Source of the DNA: Alkalispirochaeta sp.
GTDB lineage: Bacteria > Spirochaetota > Spirochaetia > DSM-27196 > Alkalispirochaetaceae
Direction: 5' to 3'
DNA length: 64,000 nt
Assembly: GCA_965242725.1 (NCBI GenBank)
Contig: CBDESZ010000022.1
Coordinates: 64,001-128,000 of the forward strand
Position numbers and translations under genes: made by a program. The notes below the pieces were generated by a model. It did not search any database. It was not told where the DNA came from and was given only the letters and a program-made list of their open reading frames with translations. This document shows positions 11,817 through 46,616 of the stretch, piece after piece (within the stretch, counting starts at the first letter, position 1; each line of letters opens with the position of its first letter).

Positions 11817-13160
11817 ATGGGGGACATTGAACGAATACAGAAAATTGTCCGGGAGCGGGATATAGAACTGACCCGATTTCTCTATACCGACAACGACGGT
11901 GTGACCAGGGGCTATTCCACCACCGCCGACTCCCTGAAAGGCGATCTTGAGCGGGGACACACATACGCAATCGCCATGCCGCTCTTCAGCGCCCATGATG
12001 ACCTCGTTCCTGACAGTAACTACGGTCCCGTCGGTGAGCTGCTGGCAAAGCCCGACCTCAGCACCTTTACCGCGATTCCCTATGCGGAGAAATCGGCCGC
12101 CGTCATTTGCGACTTCCACGACATAAACACCTACGAACCGAGTCCACTCTGTCCCCGATCGGCACTCAAGAAGACCCTCGGCAAGAGCCGGTATGAAGTT
12201 ACGGCAGCTTTTGAAAATGAATTTTATTTCCTGCTCCACGACGAGTCGGGGAATGTCGTTTCAGCGGAGGAGAGTCTCTGTTTCGATACCCGCGGCATGA
12301 ACGTAATGAACCGCGTCATCCTGGATATTATCGAGAACCTCAAGGTCCAGGGCATAACGGTGGAGAAACACTACCCGGAGTACGGCCCCGGCCAGCACGA
12401 AATCGTCACCAAATATGCCGACGCGCTGCGGGCCGCGGACAATCAGATACTCTTCAAGGAGACGGTGAAAGCCGTTGCCGCCCGGCATGGCCTCATCGCG
12501 TCGTTCATGCCGAAACCCTTTGAAGACAAATCCGGCAGCGGAGCCCATATTCATATCAGCCTGCAGGAAAATGGACGGAATGTCTTTTACGACGGCGCAC
12601 ACGAAAGCGGATACAGCGATATCGCGCGCTATTTCATTGGAGGCATCCTGAAACATGTCGAAGGGATTCTCGCCTTTACCTCTCCCATCGTAACATCCTA
12701 CAAACGCATCATACCCCACAACTGGGCAAGTGCCTTTGCGGCTTACGGCGATGCAAACAAGGAAACTGCCGTCCGTATCATTCGGGGGCTGCGGGGAAAT
12801 GAAGAAAAGGGATTCAATATCGAATTCAAACCCGCCGACGGCACCGCAAATCCCTACCTCGCCCTGAACGCACTGCTCATCGCGGGCTTTGACGGCATCA
12901 GAAACAAGATTGATCCCGGTCCGGAGCTGACGGTCGATCCGGCGGAGCTCTCCGGAGAGGAACTGGCGAAGCGGGGGGTCCGGGAACTCCCCAAATGCCT
13001 CGGCGAGGTGATCACCGCGCTGGAGGGAGACGAGCTTTTTCGGACGGAACTCGACCCCATACTTTACGCTGAATATCTGAAAATCAAGAAGTACAACTGG
13101 ACCAAATATCTCCGCCACGTATCACAATGGGAGATCGATAACTTTCTTACGATCTTTTAG
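11817..13160 (+). CDS. Glutamine synthetase-like gamma-glutamyl ligase (GlnA3/FluG-C-like)
   Basis: FENEFY, EYGPGQHE, FMPKP..SGSGAHIHIS, SYKRI, NIEFKPADGTANPY (Lys form as in FluG/NodGS). No adenylylation Tyr. AAGGAG SD. Confidence 0.88.
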   Translation: MGDIERIQKIVRERDIELTRFLYTDNDGVTRGYSTTADSLKGDLERGHTYAIAMPLFSAHDDLVPDSNYGPVGELLAKPDLSTFTAIPYAEKSAAVICDFHDINTYEPSPLCPRSALKKTLGKSRYEVTAAFENEFYFLLHDESGNVVSAEESLCFDTRGMNVMNRVILDIIENLKVQGITVEKHYPEYGPGQHEIVTKYADALRAADNQILFKETVKAVAARHGLIASFMPKPFEDKSGSGAHIHISLQENGRNVFYDGAHESGYSDIARYFIGGILKHVEGILAFTSPIVTSYKRIIPHNWASAFAAYGDANKETAVRIIRGLRGNEEKGFNIEFKPADGTANPYLALNALLIAGFDGIRNKIDPGPELTVDPAELSGEELAKRGVRELPKCLGEVITALEGDELFRTELDPILYAEYLKIKKYNWTKYLRHVSQWEIDNFLTIF

Positions 13161-39220: not shown

Positions 39221-40513
39221 TCAAACTTCATCGGAAAGGCGCGGCAGCGGCGTATCCGCCGGTACCGACCGTCCCCACTCGCGGAGAACCTCCAGAATCG
39301 TCGCTGCGGCGCGTTCCATAGACCCGAGGGGCACCCATTCATAGGGACCGTGAAAGTTCAAACCTCCCGCAAACACATTGGGGGTGGGCAGACCCATTTC
39401 CGTGAGCCGCGCGCCGTCGGTACCGCCCCGTATCGGTTCCAGAACGGGCGTCACTCCGACCGACTGTATCGCCTTCTTCAATATGTCCACCATAAAGGGA
39501 TAGTCCCGCAGGGTGTCACGCATATTGAGATACTGCTGCTCCGACGTCACCGAGACACGACACCGGGGATACGCCTTTTCAATCGTTTCTGCCAGCGACT
39601 CGATGAACGCGACCCGCCGCAACACTTCCGTCAGTTCGAAATCCCGGATAATGAACTCAATCTCCGCATGCCCATAGTCGCCCGTCACTTCCACAGGGCA
39701 GTAAAATCCAAAACGACCGTCAGTCGCCTCGGGACTTTCATTCTGGGGAACCATGGAAAGGAACTGCCCGGCGATTGTCACGGCGTTGGCCATTTTTCCC
39801 CGGGCGCTGCCGGGATGTATGACGTACCCGTCAATAGCAACGCGAACACGGTAGGCGCTGAAGCATTCCGCCTCGATGCTCCCCTCTTTTCCGCCGTCCA
39901 TGGTATAGGCAAAGCGGGCGTGAAGGGAGGGTACGTCGAGTCTGTCCACTCCCCGCCCTATTTCCTCATCGGGGGTAAATATGATTTCCAGCTCGGGATG
40001 AGGAAATTCCGGATGATCCACAAGAAACCGGACGGCCGCCATGATCTCCGCAACCCCCGCCTTGTCGTCGGCTCCGAGAAGGGTCGTACCGTCGGCGGTG
40101 ATGATCGTCTCGCCCCGGAAATCAAGGAGATCCGGGTACTCCGCGGGATCGATAGAAACACCGTTGCCGAGCTCGAGCACCGATCCGTCATAATCCACCC
40201 ATACCCGGGGGGATACATTCTTTCCGCTGCTGTCCGGTGCCGTATCCATGTGTGCGAGGAAGGCCACAGCCGGTGCCGAGACCCCTTTCGTCGGGGGAAT
40301 GCGGGCGATCACGTATCCATACTCCGTAATGGTCACATCGGATAGTCCCAACTCGGTCAATTCCCGCTCCAGCATACGCGCCAGGTCCCATTGCTGCGGG
40401 GTAGAAGGCGTCGTATCACTGTGGCGTGAGCTGGTCGTATGAACGGCCACGTATCGAAGAAAACGGGCGAGCACATCCTCCCGGAGAGCATCGCGATATT
40501 GTGTCAGATCCAT
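39221..40513 (-). CDS. pepT: Peptidase T (tripeptidase)
   Basis: RFLRYV, AHMDT, LLGADDKAG, FTPDEEIGRG, IRGGTDG, NFHG. True start at 40513; the ORF-track extension is antisense to the next gene. Confidence 0.95.
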   Translation of the reverse strand: MDLTQYRDALREDVLARFLRYVAVHTTSSRHSDTTPSTPQQWDLARMLERELTELGLSDVTITEYGYVIARIPPTKGVSAPAVAFLAHMDTAPDSSGKNVSPRVWVDYDGSVLELGNGVSIDPAEYPDLLDFRGETIITADGTTLLGADDKAGVAEIMAAVRFLVDHPEFPHPELEIIFTPDEEIGRGVDRLDVPSLHARFAYTMDGGKEGSIEAECFSAYRVRVAIDGYVIHPGSARGKMANAVTIAGQFLSMVPQNESPEATDGRFGFYCPVEVTGDYGHAEIEFIIRDFELTEVLRRVAFIESLAETIEKAYPRCRVSVTSEQQYLNMRDTLRDYPFMVDILKKAIQSVGVTPVLEPIRGGTDGARLTEMGLPTPNVFAGGLNFHGPYEWVPLGSMERAAATILEVLREWGRSVPADTPLPRLSDEV

Positions 40514-40567
40514 GACGCATCTTACCGCCATTTGCATTGTACCGACAAGTTTCCGTATATTGAGGCT

Positions 40568-41488
40568 ATGGGAATACCTCAATACCCCGACTGTGCCCCC
40601 ATCGATCTTTCGATGCGGGATCAACTTCATCCGCGCCTGTCGCTCTTGCCCGACGGCGTCTCCGAGTTTACCTTTGCCGGACTCTATCTGTTCCGTGACA
40701 CCTATAATTATCACGTCTCCCTCCTCCCGGAAGACAAGCTGCTCATCAGCGGAGAAAAGGAAGGGGCCCACTTTTTCATGCTTCCCTGCGGACTGCCCGG
40801 GGATGAGGACGTCATAGGACAGCTCTTTGACCGCTACGACTATTTGAAGGGACTGAGCGAGCGGAATGCCGACGAGGCGTGGATCACCCTTGAAAAACTG
40901 GGACTGCAGGTCAGGGAGGATCGGGACAATTTTGACTATCTCTACCTCAAGGATGACCTTGCCAACCTGCCGGGAAAGAAATTTCACAAGAAACGGAACC
41001 ACGTGAATGCCTTTGTCAACAACTATCAGTTTGACGAACAGGCGCTCAAAGAACGGCACATTCCCGACGCCATGGGAATTCTTGAAGCGTGGCAGAAGGA
41101 CAGGGAGGACCGCGCCGATTACGCCGCCGCCCGGGAAGCGCTTGAGCGGTTTCAGGAGCTTGAACTCAAAGGGTATATCGTCTACGTCGGCGACAATCCG
41201 GCGGCCTATACCGTCGGAGAACCCCTCATGAAGGGCCAGAGCTTTGTCGTTCACTTTGAAAAGGCCGTCGATGACTACCGCGGCATATACCAGTTTATCA
41301 ATAAGGCCTTTGCAACGATGCTTCCAAAGCATTACAAATGGATAAACAGGGAACAGGATCTGGGGGATGAAGGTCTGCGACAGTCAAAGATGACCTACCG
41401 ACCCACGGGATTCGTGAAGAAGTACCGGGTTGGCAGAAATCTCCCCGAAATGGGTGGTGATGCAGGAGAAACTCAAAAAAGCGCTTGA
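40568..41488 (+). CDS. DUF2156 family protein (aminoacyl-transferase/GNAT-like)
   Basis: SEFTFA, DRDNFDYLY...L.GKKFHKKRNH, HFEKA, INREQDLG.EGLRQSKMTY.P. Confidence 0.85.
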   Translation: MGIPQYPDCAPIDLSMRDQLHPRLSLLPDGVSEFTFAGLYLFRDTYNYHVSLLPEDKLLISGEKEGAHFFMLPCGLPGDEDVIGQLFDRYDYLKGLSERNADEAWITLEKLGLQVREDRDNFDYLYLKDDLANLPGKKFHKKRNHVNAFVNNYQFDEQALKERHIPDAMGILEAWQKDREDRADYAAAREALERFQELELKGYIVYVGDNPAAYTVGEPLMKGQSFVVHFEKAVDDYRGIYQFINKAFATMLPKHYKWINREQDLGDEGLRQSKMTYRPTGFVKKYRVGRNLPEMGGDAGETQKSA

Positions 41489-44400
41489 CCGGGAACTTTT
41501 GTCCCGTACCGGAGACGTAATGGCATGTCTCCCGGAGCGTTATTTTTCCGTCCATAGTGAAAAGGAGATTGCCGCTCACGCCCGGGCAATAGCCGAGCTG
41601 ACTCAGGAGTATCCGGTCCGGATCGTGCAGGGCGAAGGCGATACGGAAGAGGTCGGTTTTACCGTTTGCACCTGGGATGCGCCGGGTCTGTTCAGCTACA
41701 TTTGCGGTATTCTCGGTACCCGGGGACTGAATATTCAGGCGGGGGAGGTGTTTACCGGCACCAACGGATTGGTGGTGGACACGATTTCCGGCATCCTCCC
41801 GGAGGACACCGATACTTCCCGCTGGTGCGACGCTCTGGAGCGGGAGCTGGCAACGCTCTTTGTCCCCCTCCGGATGTCGCCCCCCGACGTCGACGCGGTA
41901 CGTATCACCGTCATGGAACGGGTGGCAAAGCGCTATACAACCCTTGCTCCCGAGCGGTCCACCCCCGATGAGGGAGAGCCGCTGCTGCCGATACGCATAA
42001 CCATCGACTCCGACGGCCCCCTGACCCGCGTCTCCGTAACTTCCCAGGACACGCCGTATTTTCTCTATTCCCTTGCCAGCGCCCTCACACTTCAGGACAT
42101 GTCGATCAAGCAGGTGGCAATCGAAACGACAAACATGGAAGTACAGGACACCTTCTGGGTGGAGCACGCCCGGGGCGGTCCGGTAACCTCCGAGAGCGAT
42201 CGTCGACGCCTGCAGCTCTCCATTCTGGTGACAAAGCAGTTCACTCACGCCCTCGACCAGGCCGCCGATCCCCGGGGCGCGTTCATCAGGTTTGAGGAGC
42301 TAGTACGCAAAGTTGCCGGCGACGGCAGCGAGGAGCGGCTCCAGAAGCTTTTAGCCGATCCCTCGGCGCAGCGTGAACTGGCACGTCTCCTCGGTGCAAG
42401 CGACTTCCTCTGGGAGGATTTCATACGGCTGCAGTATGAAAGCCTCCTGCCCCTGCTTCAGCAGGACCACAACCGCCGTCCCCTGAGCACGGCGCCGGCG
42501 GAGCTGCAAAAAAAGCTTGCCAGAGAGTTTGCAGATGCCCGGACGAGGGAGGAAAAGAAGGATCGCCTCAACGCCTTCAAAGATCGGGAGGCGTATCTCA
42601 TTGACGCGGATCACATTCTGCGACGGGATACGGATTTCTTCTTTTTGAGTCACCGTCTTACCGCCCTGGCGGAGCTTGTCGTCAGGAGGGCCTACGACAT
42701 CGCCTGGGATACCCTTTGCCAGACCTACGGCACACCCCGGAGCGCCGGCGGACTTCCGGCGGATTACGCGGTGTTCGGTTTGGGCAAACTTGGCGGAAGT
42801 GCTCTCGGTTACGCATCGGATATCGAACTCATGACGATATACAGCGATCAGGGTGAGACCGATGCATCGGAACGTCCCATTTCGAACCGGGAGTTCTTTG
42901 AGCGCCTCGTCAGGGAAGTGAGCGACCTGATCGATACCAAGCGGGAGGCGATCTTTGAAATCGATATTCGCCTTCGGCCCTACGGAGACGACGGTCCCCG
43001 GGCCGTCCATATCGAGAGCTTTCTCGACTATTTCGGGCCGCTGGGAAAGGCTCACAGCGCCGAACGACTCGCCCTCATCAGGATGCGTCACATCGCCGGA
43101 GACGAGGAGCTGGGCCGTCGTATGATCGCAATCAGGGATCACCTCGTCTACGAGACGGACGCAATCGACGTAGCCGAAATTCGGGAGCTCCGGCAGCGGC
43201 AGGCAGAGGATAAGGCCGGCGGCGGTCGCCTGAACGCCAAATTCAGCGCCGGCGCGCTGGTTGACCTGGAATACAACGTTCAGCTTCTGCAGGTTCGTGA
43301 AGGCCGGGGACATCGGGATATTCGCAACCCCGGTATTCACGCCACACTGCGCGCCCTGTCCGAGCTCGGCACGATAGACCCCGATGAAGCGGAAGGTATG
43401 GTCCGGGCATACCGCTTTTTGCGAACCCTCATCAACGGTCTGCGCATGCTCAGGGGAAATGCACAGGATCTCTTTCTTCCTCCCTTCCATACGGTGGAAG
43501 CGGCGCACCTCGCCCGGCGCATGGGGTATCGTGATCGCGTCGACCAGTCCGCGGCGGAGCAGTTGCGCGTCGATTTTGAGGTTGAGACGGCCGCGGTCAG
43601 AAGTTTCGTCGAGCGGCACCTCGGTGAAGAGGCGCTTCCGGAACTCCCCGTTGGAAATCCCGCCGATCTCGTCCTCTCAGACCGATTGAGTGAAGAGCGG
43701 AGCGCCCTCGTCCTTGAAAGCGCGGGTTTTCACAACCCTTCCCGGGGGATCGTCAACCTGCGACGTATTGCCGGCCACGGCGCGGAACGGGAGATTTTTG
43801 CCCGTCTGCTCGTTCTTGCCTGGGACTATCTCACCCGCTCCGGAGACCCCGACATGGCGCTGAACAACTGGGACCGCTTCACCGAACAGGTGACCGACCG
43901 GGCGGCATTCTTTCAGGACCTTCTTGCCCAGCCGCGACGGATCGAAATGATGATCCTCATTTTTGCGGGGAGTCAGTTTCTCAGTGACACCCTTATCAGA
44001 AACCCCGGTTTTCTCGAGTGGATAAGCGATCCCGCCGTCGTAAACGGTCGCCGCAATGCGGCCGCGATGCGGCGGGAACTTTCGGACCAGATGGGAGAGC
44101 TGACGGAACGACATGAACGGCTCGATGCGATGCGCCGCTTTCGCCGGCGGGAAATACTGCGGATCGGGACGAAGGATATCTGTCTCGCCGGAGACTTCTC
44201 GGAAGTCGTGGAAGAGCTCAGTGATCTCGCCCGGGCGATCGTATCGGCGGCGCTGGACCACATCCTGTCGGATCAACCGGTGTTGCCGGGCCGCCTCTGT
44301 ATTCTCGCCTTCGGCAAGCTGGGCGGAAACGAGCTCAACTACAGCTCCGACATCGATCTCCTCGCGGTCTATGAACCGGATTCCACGATCCACGACCAGG

Positions 44401-45140
44401 AGCGCGTCGCCGCAGCGGTATTCCGCCAGCTCGTCCGTGATCTCAGCGACTTTACCGTCCAGGGCCAGGTCTATCGCGTCGACCTCCGCCTCCGTCCCTG
44501 GGGCAACGCGGGACGTCTCGTCTACGCCCGTCCTGCGGCGGTGCGCTACTACAGCTCCGAGGCGGAGCTGTGGGAGCTGCAGGCACTGATCAAGCTTTCT
44601 CCGATCGCCGGCGACATCGCCCTGGGAAGGGAATTTCTCGATGAGCTCCACCGGCCCTTCGGCAAGCGGATCACGTCGGCCGGAAGAAAAGAGGTCCTGC
44701 GGACGATTCGCCATTTGCGGGGCCGGGCGATTCAGCAGTACGAGAGTCCGAACGGCACGGATATCAAGAACGGTCAGGGCGGTATACGGGACGTGGAATT
44801 TCTCGTGCAGGCACTGCAAATGCTCCACCACGACCTCTATCCGGAGCTCCTGACGGGCAATACCCTCCGCGCGCTGGAAACGATGGAAGAGACGGGCATA
44901 CTCGACGGCGCGACGGTTCAGGAACTGCAGGAGGACTATCTCTTTCTGCGACGAATTGAACACTTTCTGCAGGTATATGACGACCGTCAGCTTCACTCAA
45001 TTCCACAGGAGCCGGAAGCGCAGGCAAAGCTGCGTCGTGTCGTCATGGCGTCATCGGACGAAGAGAAGACACTGGTTTCCCGTCTTTCGGATACGCTGCA
45101 GCGCGTCCGTCACCGGTACAACTCAGTCATTGGAGAGTAG
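41460..45140 (+). CDS. glnE: Glutamine synthetase adenylyltransferase/deadenylase with N-terminal tandem ACT domains
   Basis: Two NT motifs (GKLGGSALGYASDIE; GKLGGNELNYSSDID), each followed by D.RLRP. GlnD-like ACT repeats at the N-terminus. Adjacent to glnA. Confidence 0.9.
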   Translation: MQEKLKKALDRELLSRTGDVMACLPERYFSVHSEKEIAAHARAIAELTQEYPVRIVQGEGDTEEVGFTVCTWDAPGLFSYICGILGTRGLNIQAGEVFTGTNGLVVDTISGILPEDTDTSRWCDALERELATLFVPLRMSPPDVDAVRITVMERVAKRYTTLAPERSTPDEGEPLLPIRITIDSDGPLTRVSVTSQDTPYFLYSLASALTLQDMSIKQVAIETTNMEVQDTFWVEHARGGPVTSESDRRRLQLSILVTKQFTHALDQAADPRGAFIRFEELVRKVAGDGSEERLQKLLADPSAQRELARLLGASDFLWEDFIRLQYESLLPLLQQDHNRRPLSTAPAELQKKLAREFADARTREEKKDRLNAFKDREAYLIDADHILRRDTDFFFLSHRLTALAELVVRRAYDIAWDTLCQTYGTPRSAGGLPADYAVFGLGKLGGSALGYASDIELMTIYSDQGETDASERPISNREFFERLVREVSDLIDTKREAIFEIDIRLRPYGDDGPRAVHIESFLDYFGPLGKAHSAERLALIRMRHIAGDEELGRRMIAIRDHLVYETDAIDVAEIRELRQRQAEDKAGGGRLNAKFSAGALVDLEYNVQLLQVREGRGHRDIRNPGIHATLRALSELGTIDPDEAEGMVRAYRFLRTLINGLRMLRGNAQDLFLPPFHTVEAAHLARRMGYRDRVDQSAAEQLRVDFEVETAAVRSFVERHLGEEALPELPVGNPADLVLSDRLSEERSALVLESAGFHNPSRGIVNLRRIAGHGAEREIFARLLVLAWDYLTRSGDPDMALNNWDRFTEQVTDRAAFFQDLLAQPRRIEMMILIFAGSQFLSDTLIRNPGFLEWISDPAVVNGRRNAAAMRRELSDQMGELTERHERLDAMRRFRRREILRIGTKDICLAGDFSEVVEELSDLARAIVSAALDHILSDQPVLPGRLCILAFGKLGGNELNYSSDIDLLAVYEPDSTIHDQERVAAAVFRQLVRDLSDFTVQGQVYRVDLRLRPWGNAGRLVYARPAAVRYYSSEAELWELQALIKLSPIAGDIALGREFLDELHRPFGKRITSAGRKEVLRTIRHLRGRAIQQYESPNGTDIKNGQGGIRDVEFLVQALQMLHHDLYPELLTGNTLRALETMEETGILDGATVQELQEDYLFLRRIEHFLQVYDDRQLHSIPQEPEAQAKLRRVVMASSDEEKTLVSRLSDTLQRVRHRYNSVIGE

Positions 45141-45183
45141 CGCCGGCGGCGGACCACCCGGAGGTGGACCGCCAAACCCGGCG
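45141..45183. terminator. GC-rich hairpin between convergent glnE and glnA
   Basis: CGCCGG..GGCGG-A-CCACC-cgga-GGTGG-A-CCGCC..CCGGCG. No clear U tract. Confidence 0.5.
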
Positions 45184-45194
45184 ATACAACGGAA

Positions 45195-46616
45195 TCAAAT
45201 GTCGTAATAGAGGGCAAACTCGTAGGGGTGGGGCCGGAGGTCAAGGGCCATCGCCTCGTTCTCCCGTTTGTATTCAATCCACGTCGCAATGACGTCTTCG
45301 GTGAAGACATCTCCCTTCAGGAGAAACTCGTGATCCTGTTCGAGGGCGTCGAGTGCTTCTCTCAGGCTGCCCGGCGTCTTGGGTACCGCCGCCGCCTCTT
45401 CTGCGGGCATATCATAGATGTTGCGGTCCAGGGGATCACCCGGGTCGATCTTGTTCTGTATGCCGTCAATCGCTGCCATGAGCATCGCGCTGAAGCCAAG
45501 GTAGGGGTTGCTCGACGGATCGGGACAACGGAACTCAAAGCGCTTCGCTTTTTCGCTGTGGGAGTACATGGGTATACGAATTGCGGCGCTTCGGTTTCGA
45601 CTGGAGTAGGCAAGATTGACCGGTGCCTCATATCCCGGGACGAGACGCTTGTAGCTGTTGGTCGTCGGGTTGGTGAAGGCAAGTATTGCCGGCGCGTGCT
45701 TCAGGATTCCACCAATCGCATAGAGTGCCGTCTGGGAGAGACCGGCATATCCGTCTCCGTAGAACTGGTTCTTGCCGTCTTTCCAGATCGAGAGGTGGGT
45801 GTGCATTCCGCTCCCGTTGTCCATAAAGAGGGGCTTGGGCATGAACGTGACGGTCTTGTTGTGTTTCCTGGCGACGTTTTTCACGACGTACTTGTACTTG
45901 GTCATGTTGTCCGCCATCTCAAGTAGCGGAGCAAAGCGCATGTCGATTTCACACTGTCCGCCGGTGGCCACCTCATGGTGATGGGCTTCAACGTTCAGAC
46001 CGATCTCGTCCATGATCACTACCATCTCGGACCTGATATCCTGCAGTGCGTCACTGGGGGGTACGGGGAAGTATCCCTCTTTGTAGCGCGGCTTGTATCC
46101 GAGGTTGGGACCTTCGTCCTTACCTGAGTTCCATCGACCCTCGGAAGAATCGATGTAGTAGTATCCGCTGTGCTCATTCTGGTCGTACCGGATGTCGTCA
46201 AAAATGAAGAACTCCGCCTCGGGACCAATGAAGGCGGTGTCGCCGATACCGGCGCTGCGCAGATAGTTCTCCGCCTTCCTGGCGATATTACGGGGATCTC
46301 TCGTGTAGTCCTCACCGGTGATAGGATCGCCAATGTTACACGTCATGACCAGCGTCTTGATTTCCATGAAGGGATCGATAAACGCCGTCTGCGGTTGAGG
46401 TTTTACGATCATGTCCGACTCGTTGATGCTTTGCCATCCGCGAATACTTGACCCGTCAAATCCGAGACCGTCGGTAAAACTCTCTTCGTCGATCTTGCTG
46501 GCAGGAACCGAGAAGTGCTGCTGCATTCCCGGAAAGTCCATGAATCGAAAGTCGACGATCTTGACGTCCTCTTTTTTGATTAAATCGAGCACGTCTTTGG
46601 CGGTCATATCACTCAT
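45195..46616 (-). CDS. glnA: Type I glutamine synthetase
   Basis: [41 protein letters not shown], adenylylation site NIYDM. GGAGG SD. Confidence 0.98.

Follow-up and report, generated by a model that had tools for sequence, protein, structure and literature searches.

A variant of GlnE, the enzyme that adenylylates and deadenylylates glutamine synthetase (GS), is encoded on the plus strand at positions 41430-45140 of a 64,000-nucleotide stretch of Alkalispirochaeta sp. DNA (contig CBDESZ010000022.1, positions 64,001 to 128,000; hereafter the window), and it carries a GlnD-type pair of ACT domains ahead of an adenylyltransferase (AT) half and an adenylyl-removase (AR) half. We confirmed that this ACT2-AT-AR form is real and widespread. 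The explanation that we favor, and consider reasonably probable, is that the protein is a bifunctional GS adenylyltransferase/removase from an ACT-bearing GlnE subfamily, permuted in its catalytic order and governed by what its ACT pair senses. GS adenylylation is a founding model of covalent cascade control, and to our knowledge the known examples come from Proteobacteria and Actinobacteria. The source genome (G000) is 91.8% complete. The parts of the gene and its presumed substrate lie in the window as follows.

41430..45140, + strand: glnE variant, ACT-ACT-(short R)-AT-(R-like)-AR, 1236 aa
41463..42227, + strand: GlnD-type C-terminal module, comprising lead helices (YF..H motif), ACT1 and ACT2
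42228..42539, + strand: shortened R-type helical region ahead of the AT half (HHalign probability 99.5, E 4.3e-23)
42540..43616, + strand: first nucleotidyltransferase (NT) plus helical unit, residues 371-729, putative adenylyltransferase (GKLGG..LG-Y-A-S-D464-x-E466, D512)
43662..44102, + strand: full R-like helical region, residues 745-891, ahead of the AR half
44103..45125, + strand: second NT plus helical unit, residues 892-1232, putative adenylyl-removase (ELN970-Y-S-S-D974-x-D976, D1018)
45195..46616, - strand: type I glutamine synthetase gene glnA, presumed substrate (DRNIYDMP; TIGR00653, 682 bits)

The gene is a single intact open reading frame (ORF) of 1236 aa when counted from TTG 41430; its start is uncertain (TTG 41430 or ATG 41460), and from either candidate the gene overlaps the upstream ORF, which ends at 41488. 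It is matched in 17/17 genomes of the genus, with three of the matches in pieces and two containing one stop. The same layout is common to 106 aligned homologues, and close homologues bear Alkalispirochaeta or Spirochaeta names. An assembly artefact or chance fusion was rejected on the basis of the genus matches and the shared layout. Two stretches each are matched by Pfam PF03710 (319 bits) and PF08335 (135 bits), and the two GlnE NT plus helical units fall at residues ∼371-729 and 892-1232. All three NCBIfam GlnE equivalog models were missed (score/cut-off of 444.7/487 for PRK11072, 370.2/724 for PRK14108 and 438.4/625 for PRK14109). An AlphaFold model of residues 31-1228 has a predicted local distance difference test score (pLDDT) of 90.9 and a predicted template modeling score of 0.84, and when the complete model was compared by fold, two fragments of E. 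coli GlnE, 1V4A and 3K7D (E 1e-17), came out on top. Every motif quoted in the original prediction, which was made from the letters of this stretch, was found in the translation. The adjacent type I GlnA also retains its target Tyr within DRNIYDMP, as had been proposed; this residue aligns with E. coli GS Tyr398 (numbered from Met1), and glnA is convergent with glnE.

E. coli GlnE (946 aa, NP_417525.1; PDB 1V4A for the AR half and 3K7D for R plus the AT half) provides the best PDB sequence and fold matches of the window protein. Both have two Pol-beta-type NT plus helical units with intact acidic triads, and each is accompanied by a type I GS that carries the target Tyr. The window protein differs in reading AT-AR rather than AR-R-AT, in having the ACT pair in place of E. 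coli residues ∼441-506, in the DxE of its AT half, and, by the genomic test described below, in its setting, since no GlnD was found in the genus and no Tyr51-containing PII in G000.

The inverted order is well supported as ancestry by comparison of the individual halves. Two ACT-bearing layouts were compared, type N (ACT2-AT-AR, whose halves we call h1 and h2) and type M (AR-ACT2-AT, with the ACT pair between the halves). In a FastTree analysis of 121 halves, from which those <250 aa had been dropped, N-h1 groups with M-h2, and N-h2 lies near the AR halves with weak support (0.72). A quick IQ-TREE search under LG+C20 with 50 halves (from 7 proteobacterial references, 9 type N proteins of five phyla, 6 type M and 3 without ACT; Actinobacteria were left out) separates an AT side from an AR side with a Shimodaira-Hasegawa-like approximate likelihood ratio test (SH-aLRT) value of 97. 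The first half of the window protein falls within a group of N-h1 and M-h2 (97) on the AT side, and the second half is placed among the AR halves (97). A tree constrained to hold all first halves together is worse by 102.6 log-likelihood units, and the collinear order is rejected by the approximately unbiased (AU) test (p 1.7e-69). The reversed ACT-ACT-AT-AR order that had been predicted is thus borne out by the phylogeny of each half. The motifs agree: in type M proteins the E. coli AR motif (Asn, DxD) is found in the half N-terminal to the ACT pair, with Gly and DxE in the half C-terminal to it, and in type N proteins the order of these two motifs is reversed. We label the first half AT because of the trees, the position of its counterpart in AR-ACT2-AT proteins and this Gly/Asn motif; going by ancestry, the first half would adenylylate and the second would deadenylylate.

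Several observations tell against this assignment of the halves. BLAST scores against E. coli AR and AT are 132 and 97 bits, respectively, for the first half and 151 and 110 for the second; the Asn/Gly motif is not absolute, with Asn found in second halves of Legionella and of two further GlnEs (L077, L080); and the 50-half tree comes from a quick search, lacks Actinobacteria and includes several rows of uneven composition. A rival proposal is that the order is not functionally reversed: the DxE half would act as a removase or be inactive, and adenylylation would fall to the second half. The higher BLAST score of the first half to AR, the Asn motif in some second halves and the region ahead of the second half, which aligns along the whole canonical R domain, would fit such a proposal. 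We consider it highly improbable in view of the AU test, the C-terminal AT position that the DxE half holds in AR-ACT2-AT proteins, the standing of the DxE half as the most conserved part of the protein, and the R-like helical stretch at residues 745-891, which is matched best by the N-terminal ends of AR-only Nitrospira-like proteins (81-93 bits, versus ≤68 for others). Pairwise BLAST to the E. coli halves was dropped as a discriminator because both halves score higher on AR. In a separate observation from the FastTree analysis, the actinobacterial GlnE halves of two genomes (L095, L096) group with each other rather than with proteobacterial AR or AT, a pattern that may reflect a duplication of their own or gene conversion.

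The catalytic acids D464, E466 and D512 of the first half and D974, D976 and D1018 of the second are present in 106/106 homologues. The original prediction had called the DxE of the first active site atypical. The substitution of E for D at 466 is real, and it is invariant in 106/106 homologues and common to the AR-ACT2-AT and split forms, which is the behavior of a family signature, as we read these sequences, and not of decay. The Pol-beta nucleotidyltransferase pattern D-x-[DE] accommodates it. A dead site was rejected as unlikely, given the invariance of the motif and its location in the most conserved half.

The N-terminal region is related to the C-terminal end of GlnD. Residues 12-266 match the ends of two GlnD models (PRK05092 677-920 of 940, E 6.9e-25; TIGR01693 624-844 of 850, E 4.2e-24), and an ACT alignment of 27 family sequences matches E. 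coli GlnD 655-870 with an HHalign probability of 95.8 (E 7.4e-9). The predicted GlnD-type tandem ACT was therefore recovered through these models, with the Pfam ACT model by itself staying below its cut-off: PF01842 gives 16.5 bits with the whole protein and 20.5 with the fragment against a gathering threshold of 27, and it matches 6/27 family members at E ≤ 0.1 (best 2e-7). The AlphaFold model of the ACT region (pLDDT 88.9) contains two ACT-like units. Its structural neighbors are ACT-type domains with middling Z scores (9c7n, Z 8.1, root-mean-square deviation 2.3 over 79 residues), and a structural search for a close solved relative of the pair found none, the best Z being 8.5. ACT1 covers residues ∼63-144 with the loop D83-A-P-G-L-F, and ACT2 covers residues ∼189-266 with the loop D207-T-P-Y-F-L; D117, D207, T208, F211, L212 and D240 are invariant in 106/106 homologues, and D83 is present in 103/106. 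The likeness to GlnD (E. coli NP_414709.1, TIGR01693) extends over the lead helices and both ACT domains. The window protein differs from GlnD in lacking an HD domain, in having GlnE-type catalytic halves and in carrying the ACT pair at the N-terminus; its whole-model TIGR01693 score is 84.8 bits against a cut-off of 519, so it is not a GlnD. A full GlnD-GlnE fusion was likewise rejected, as no HD domain appeared in the Pfam scan.

We lean toward glutamine as the ligand of the ACT pair. According to PMC11190351, the glutamine response of GlnD requires its ACT domains, and an algal amylase is activated by glutamine through a related ACT, with Leu110 important and the conserved Asp dispensable. 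That dispensable Asp and the low conservation of the region, which is the least conserved part of the window protein (mean identity 36%, versus 61% for AT), are points on the other side, since together they mean that the ACT sequence cannot name the ligand. In a quite unlikely alternative, the pair would have a different ligand (an end product of GS or some other amino acid) or serve mainly in oligomerisation, and any glutamine sensing would occur through binding to the AT half, as it does in E. coli and Herbaspirillum. The low conservation and a large variable insertion within ACT1 would suit this alternative, as would the reports that canonical GlnE C-terminal halves respond to glutamine without ACT domains and that ACT ligands vary. 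Against it, the module finds its nearest named relatives in the GlnD and ACR types, which are linked to glutamine, both ACT domains have D-x-P-x-(F/L)-(L/F) loops that align with DRPYLF and DQPGLL of GlnD, and the ACT2 residues are invariant.

Three layouts of the ACT-bearing proteins were found. Within the phylum, GlnE was over the cut-off in 52/301 genomes, and 48 of the 51 other GlnE genomes were classified as type N (10), type M (17, one in two ORFs), without ACT (19) or contig-edge fragments (2). A profile search with the ACT region returned 304 clusters at E ≤ 1e-30, the best 150 of which comprise 42 ACT-AT-AR, 21 AR-ACT-AT and 41 ACT-AT proteins (some of these fragments), the rest being partial or with the motif unread. 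Many of the ACT-AT proteins are 725-790 aa long, and one of 759 aa represents a 41-member cluster with Nitrospira names. Scanning 185,579 species genomes gave at least 534 confirmed stretches. The best 80 of these at least 534 come from Spirochaetota, Desulfobacterota/Deltaproteobacteria, Lentisphaerae, Kiritimatiellia, Verrucomicrobiota, Planctomycetota and Chloroflexota, with Nitrospira added by the 41-member cluster; none of the 80 has an AR half ahead of the ACT pair (5 are cut before the second half). In the Nitrospira-like split form, an AR-only gene (∼570-620 aa) stands head-to-head with ACT2-AT in the best 80 metagenome loci wherever the upstream DNA is long enough; L231:6224-10277 is one such divergent pair, as are most of the loci L231-L310.

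The 28 ACT-linked halves of the three layouts form one group with SH-aLRT 100 (LG+G4 quick tree). Because the ACT-ACT-AT module occurs in all three layouts, the ACT pair travels with AT, and the window gene is a permutation. The simplest history would be a fission of AR-ACT2-AT followed by a joining of the two parts in reverse, although the sequence of events cannot be read from the tree. The Nitrospira AR as sister of the type N AR is suggested by the helical region alone and is not resolved in the tree. On the AT side, alignment to canonical GlnE begins at residue 267, equivalent to E. coli 507, so that the ACT pair occupies the place of E. coli ∼441-506. This part of R is reportedly a PII contact in E. 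coli (Clancy et al. 2007). On the AR side, the R-like region is retained in full.

Other arrangements were seen among the same proteins. A 1586-aa AR-ACT2-AT protein (L064:4801-9558, minus strand) carries additional inserted sequence flanking its ACT pair on either side. Spirochaetota GlnEs of ∼900-925 aa without ACT (L068-L074) have a degenerate second half, with the motif unread and a very long branch, and are possible removase-only proteins; three GlnEs without ACT (L077, L080, L083) show the opposite pattern, an intact second half behind a degenerate first one, and are possible one-way enzymes.

The genomic context indicates that, in this genus, the GlnD step (uridylylation of PII) is very probably missing. 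The original prediction had asked whether glnD and glnB accompany the gene. A search for glnD found none in G000, and glnD was found in 0/17 genomes of the genus, 0/10 other type N spirochaetes and 0/16 Spirochaetota-labeled genomes (these sets may overlap). G000 has one PII gene, located beside amtB on a different contig from glnE, with Ile at position 51 in place of Tyr51. Control through GlnD and PII-UMP is unlikely here because no glnD was found in 17/17 genomes of the genus and the only PII of G000 is without Tyr51. PII itself is kept in 11/11 type N spirochaete genomes, and in 18 of the 19 matches read, out of 23 in these 11 genomes, Tyr51 is missing. In addition, neither PII nor glnD was found in four type M genomes (G032, 98% complete; G119, 95%; G097, 84%; G088, 75%).

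A number of observations outside this genus weigh against a bypass of GlnD as a property of the whole family. We note that most of the genomes are incomplete metagenome-assembled genomes and that kin among them are not independent. Among 50 type N genomes picked from the best 80 loci, 20 keep glnD, distributed as 0/16 with Spirochaetota labels, 19/21 Desulfobacterota/delta, 1/9 Planctomycetes-Verrucomicrobia-Chlamydiae and 0/4 others. Type M genomes keep it in 8/17 cases, with Tyr51 in all 9 PII copies read there, and at four loci (L169, L173, L186, L219) glnD and a Tyr51-PII gene share the locus with the glnE variant. A PII gene lies within 2.5 kb in 12/80 of the best loci, and in 10/80 that gene is the immediate upstream neighbor, reads in the same direction and encodes Ile or Val at position 51. 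Of the bypass of the GlnD-PII cascade that had been suggested as possible for this enzyme, the part concerning GlnD is likely for the source genome and the genus, and it does not hold family-wide. The ACT pair as a general replacement for GlnD was rejected outside Spirochaetota, as 19/21 Desulfobacterota carriers keep glnD. Six Desulfobacterota/deltaproteobacterial genomes (G317, G329, G331, G335, G344, G346) have glnD twice in full length, in many cases as oppositely oriented copies separated by a few kb.

If, as is very probable, the uridylylation arm is missing in the genus, GlnE itself has to be the point of entry for the nitrogen signal, and we propose the following mechanism. In nitrogen excess, an amino acid, most likely glutamine, would bind the ACT pair, and the ligand-bound pair would switch on the adjacent AT half, which would then adenylylate the Tyr of the neighboring type I GS; when the ligand drops, the AR half would take AMP off GS. 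Control of the AT half by the ACT pair is the likely core of this scheme, and whether unmodified PII adds a 2-oxoglutarate/ATP-ADP input seems to us evenly poised. The same architecture would also permit joint or PII-dominated control, in which the 2-oxoglutarate/ATP/ADP state of unmodified PII, which would bind the R-like helices, sets the AT/AR switch and the ACT pair only tunes or relays. The retention of PII in every type N spirochaete genome, the Ile/Val51 PII genes directly upstream in some loci, the full R-like region persisting ahead of AR, and a precedent in Rhodospirillum rubrum, whose GlnE is controlled by unmodified PII according to the summary in bioRxiv 10.64898/2026.09.02.748916, all speak for PII. 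The four AR-ACT2-AT genomes that gave neither PII nor glnD, the replacement of the first part of R by the ACT pair on the AT side, and the separate contig that holds the PII gene and amtB in G000 make this version unlikely. A complex prediction of the PII trimer with residues 262-905 scored 0.00, gave no answer and is evidence for neither side. Returning to the ACT-sensed enzyme, a broader proposal is that a multi-phylum GlnE subfamily acquired the GlnD ACT sensor and reduced the bicyclic GlnD-PII-GlnE cascade to a single enzyme that does its own sensing and needs neither GlnD nor PII, with AT and AR halves that, to judge by the fused, split and permuted forms, work in any order and ACT2-AT as a natural, portable, ligand-gated off-switch for GS; we put this forward tentatively, as somewhat doubtful.

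The novelty lies in the architecture more than in the logic, because direct glutamine sensing and PII-independent adenylylation have been reported for canonical GlnEs too. The paper bioRxiv 10.64898/2026.09.02.748916 describes E. coli and Herbaspirillum seropedicae GlnE as sensing glutamine via the C-terminal half and Streptomyces coelicolor GlnE as PII/GlnD-independent; it gives the H. seropedicae, R. rubrum and S. coelicolor enzymes an N-terminal AR and a C-terminal AT, unlike the window protein, and the word ACT does not occur in it. The parts seen of PMC12409994, PMC3710099 (a HEPN review) and PMC2700814 contain the canonical GlnE order only and no ACT-GlnE. Plant ACR proteins and Chlamydomonas AMA2 have GlnD-like ACT domains, but they are eukaryotic and have different or no catalytic domains (PMC11190351). 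Titles and abstract beginnings yielded no description of the ACT-GlnE architecture; subscription papers and database architecture pages lay outside this search, so absence from print is unproven, and the ACT-bearing GlnE is apparently an undescribed variant.

The subfamily suggests how lineages without GlnD couple GS to nitrogen status, and it is a natural test of whether AT/AR order matters in intramolecular signaling. Its GlnD-type ACT pair is tractable for locating the glutamine site. The family may also offer an adenylyltransferase that is naturally one-way and possibly ligand-gated, like those reported as engineered for ammonia-excreting diazotrophs.

Around the gene, glnA is found within 2.5 kb in 37/80 of the best loci (25/41 of those with 2 kb of flank on both sides), always with the Tyr present. 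The upstream ORF in the window (40439-41488, plus strand), which contains PF09924 (LPG_synthase_C), overlaps the glnE start, and this overlap suggests co-transcription. Between the convergent glnE and glnA stops, positions 45141-45194 form a short G+C-rich segment with nested inverted repeats, a possible shared terminator. A second GS-family gene in the window (12036-13142, plus strand) has 31% identity to E. coli GS without the adenylylation Tyr, and its product is probably not a GlnE substrate.

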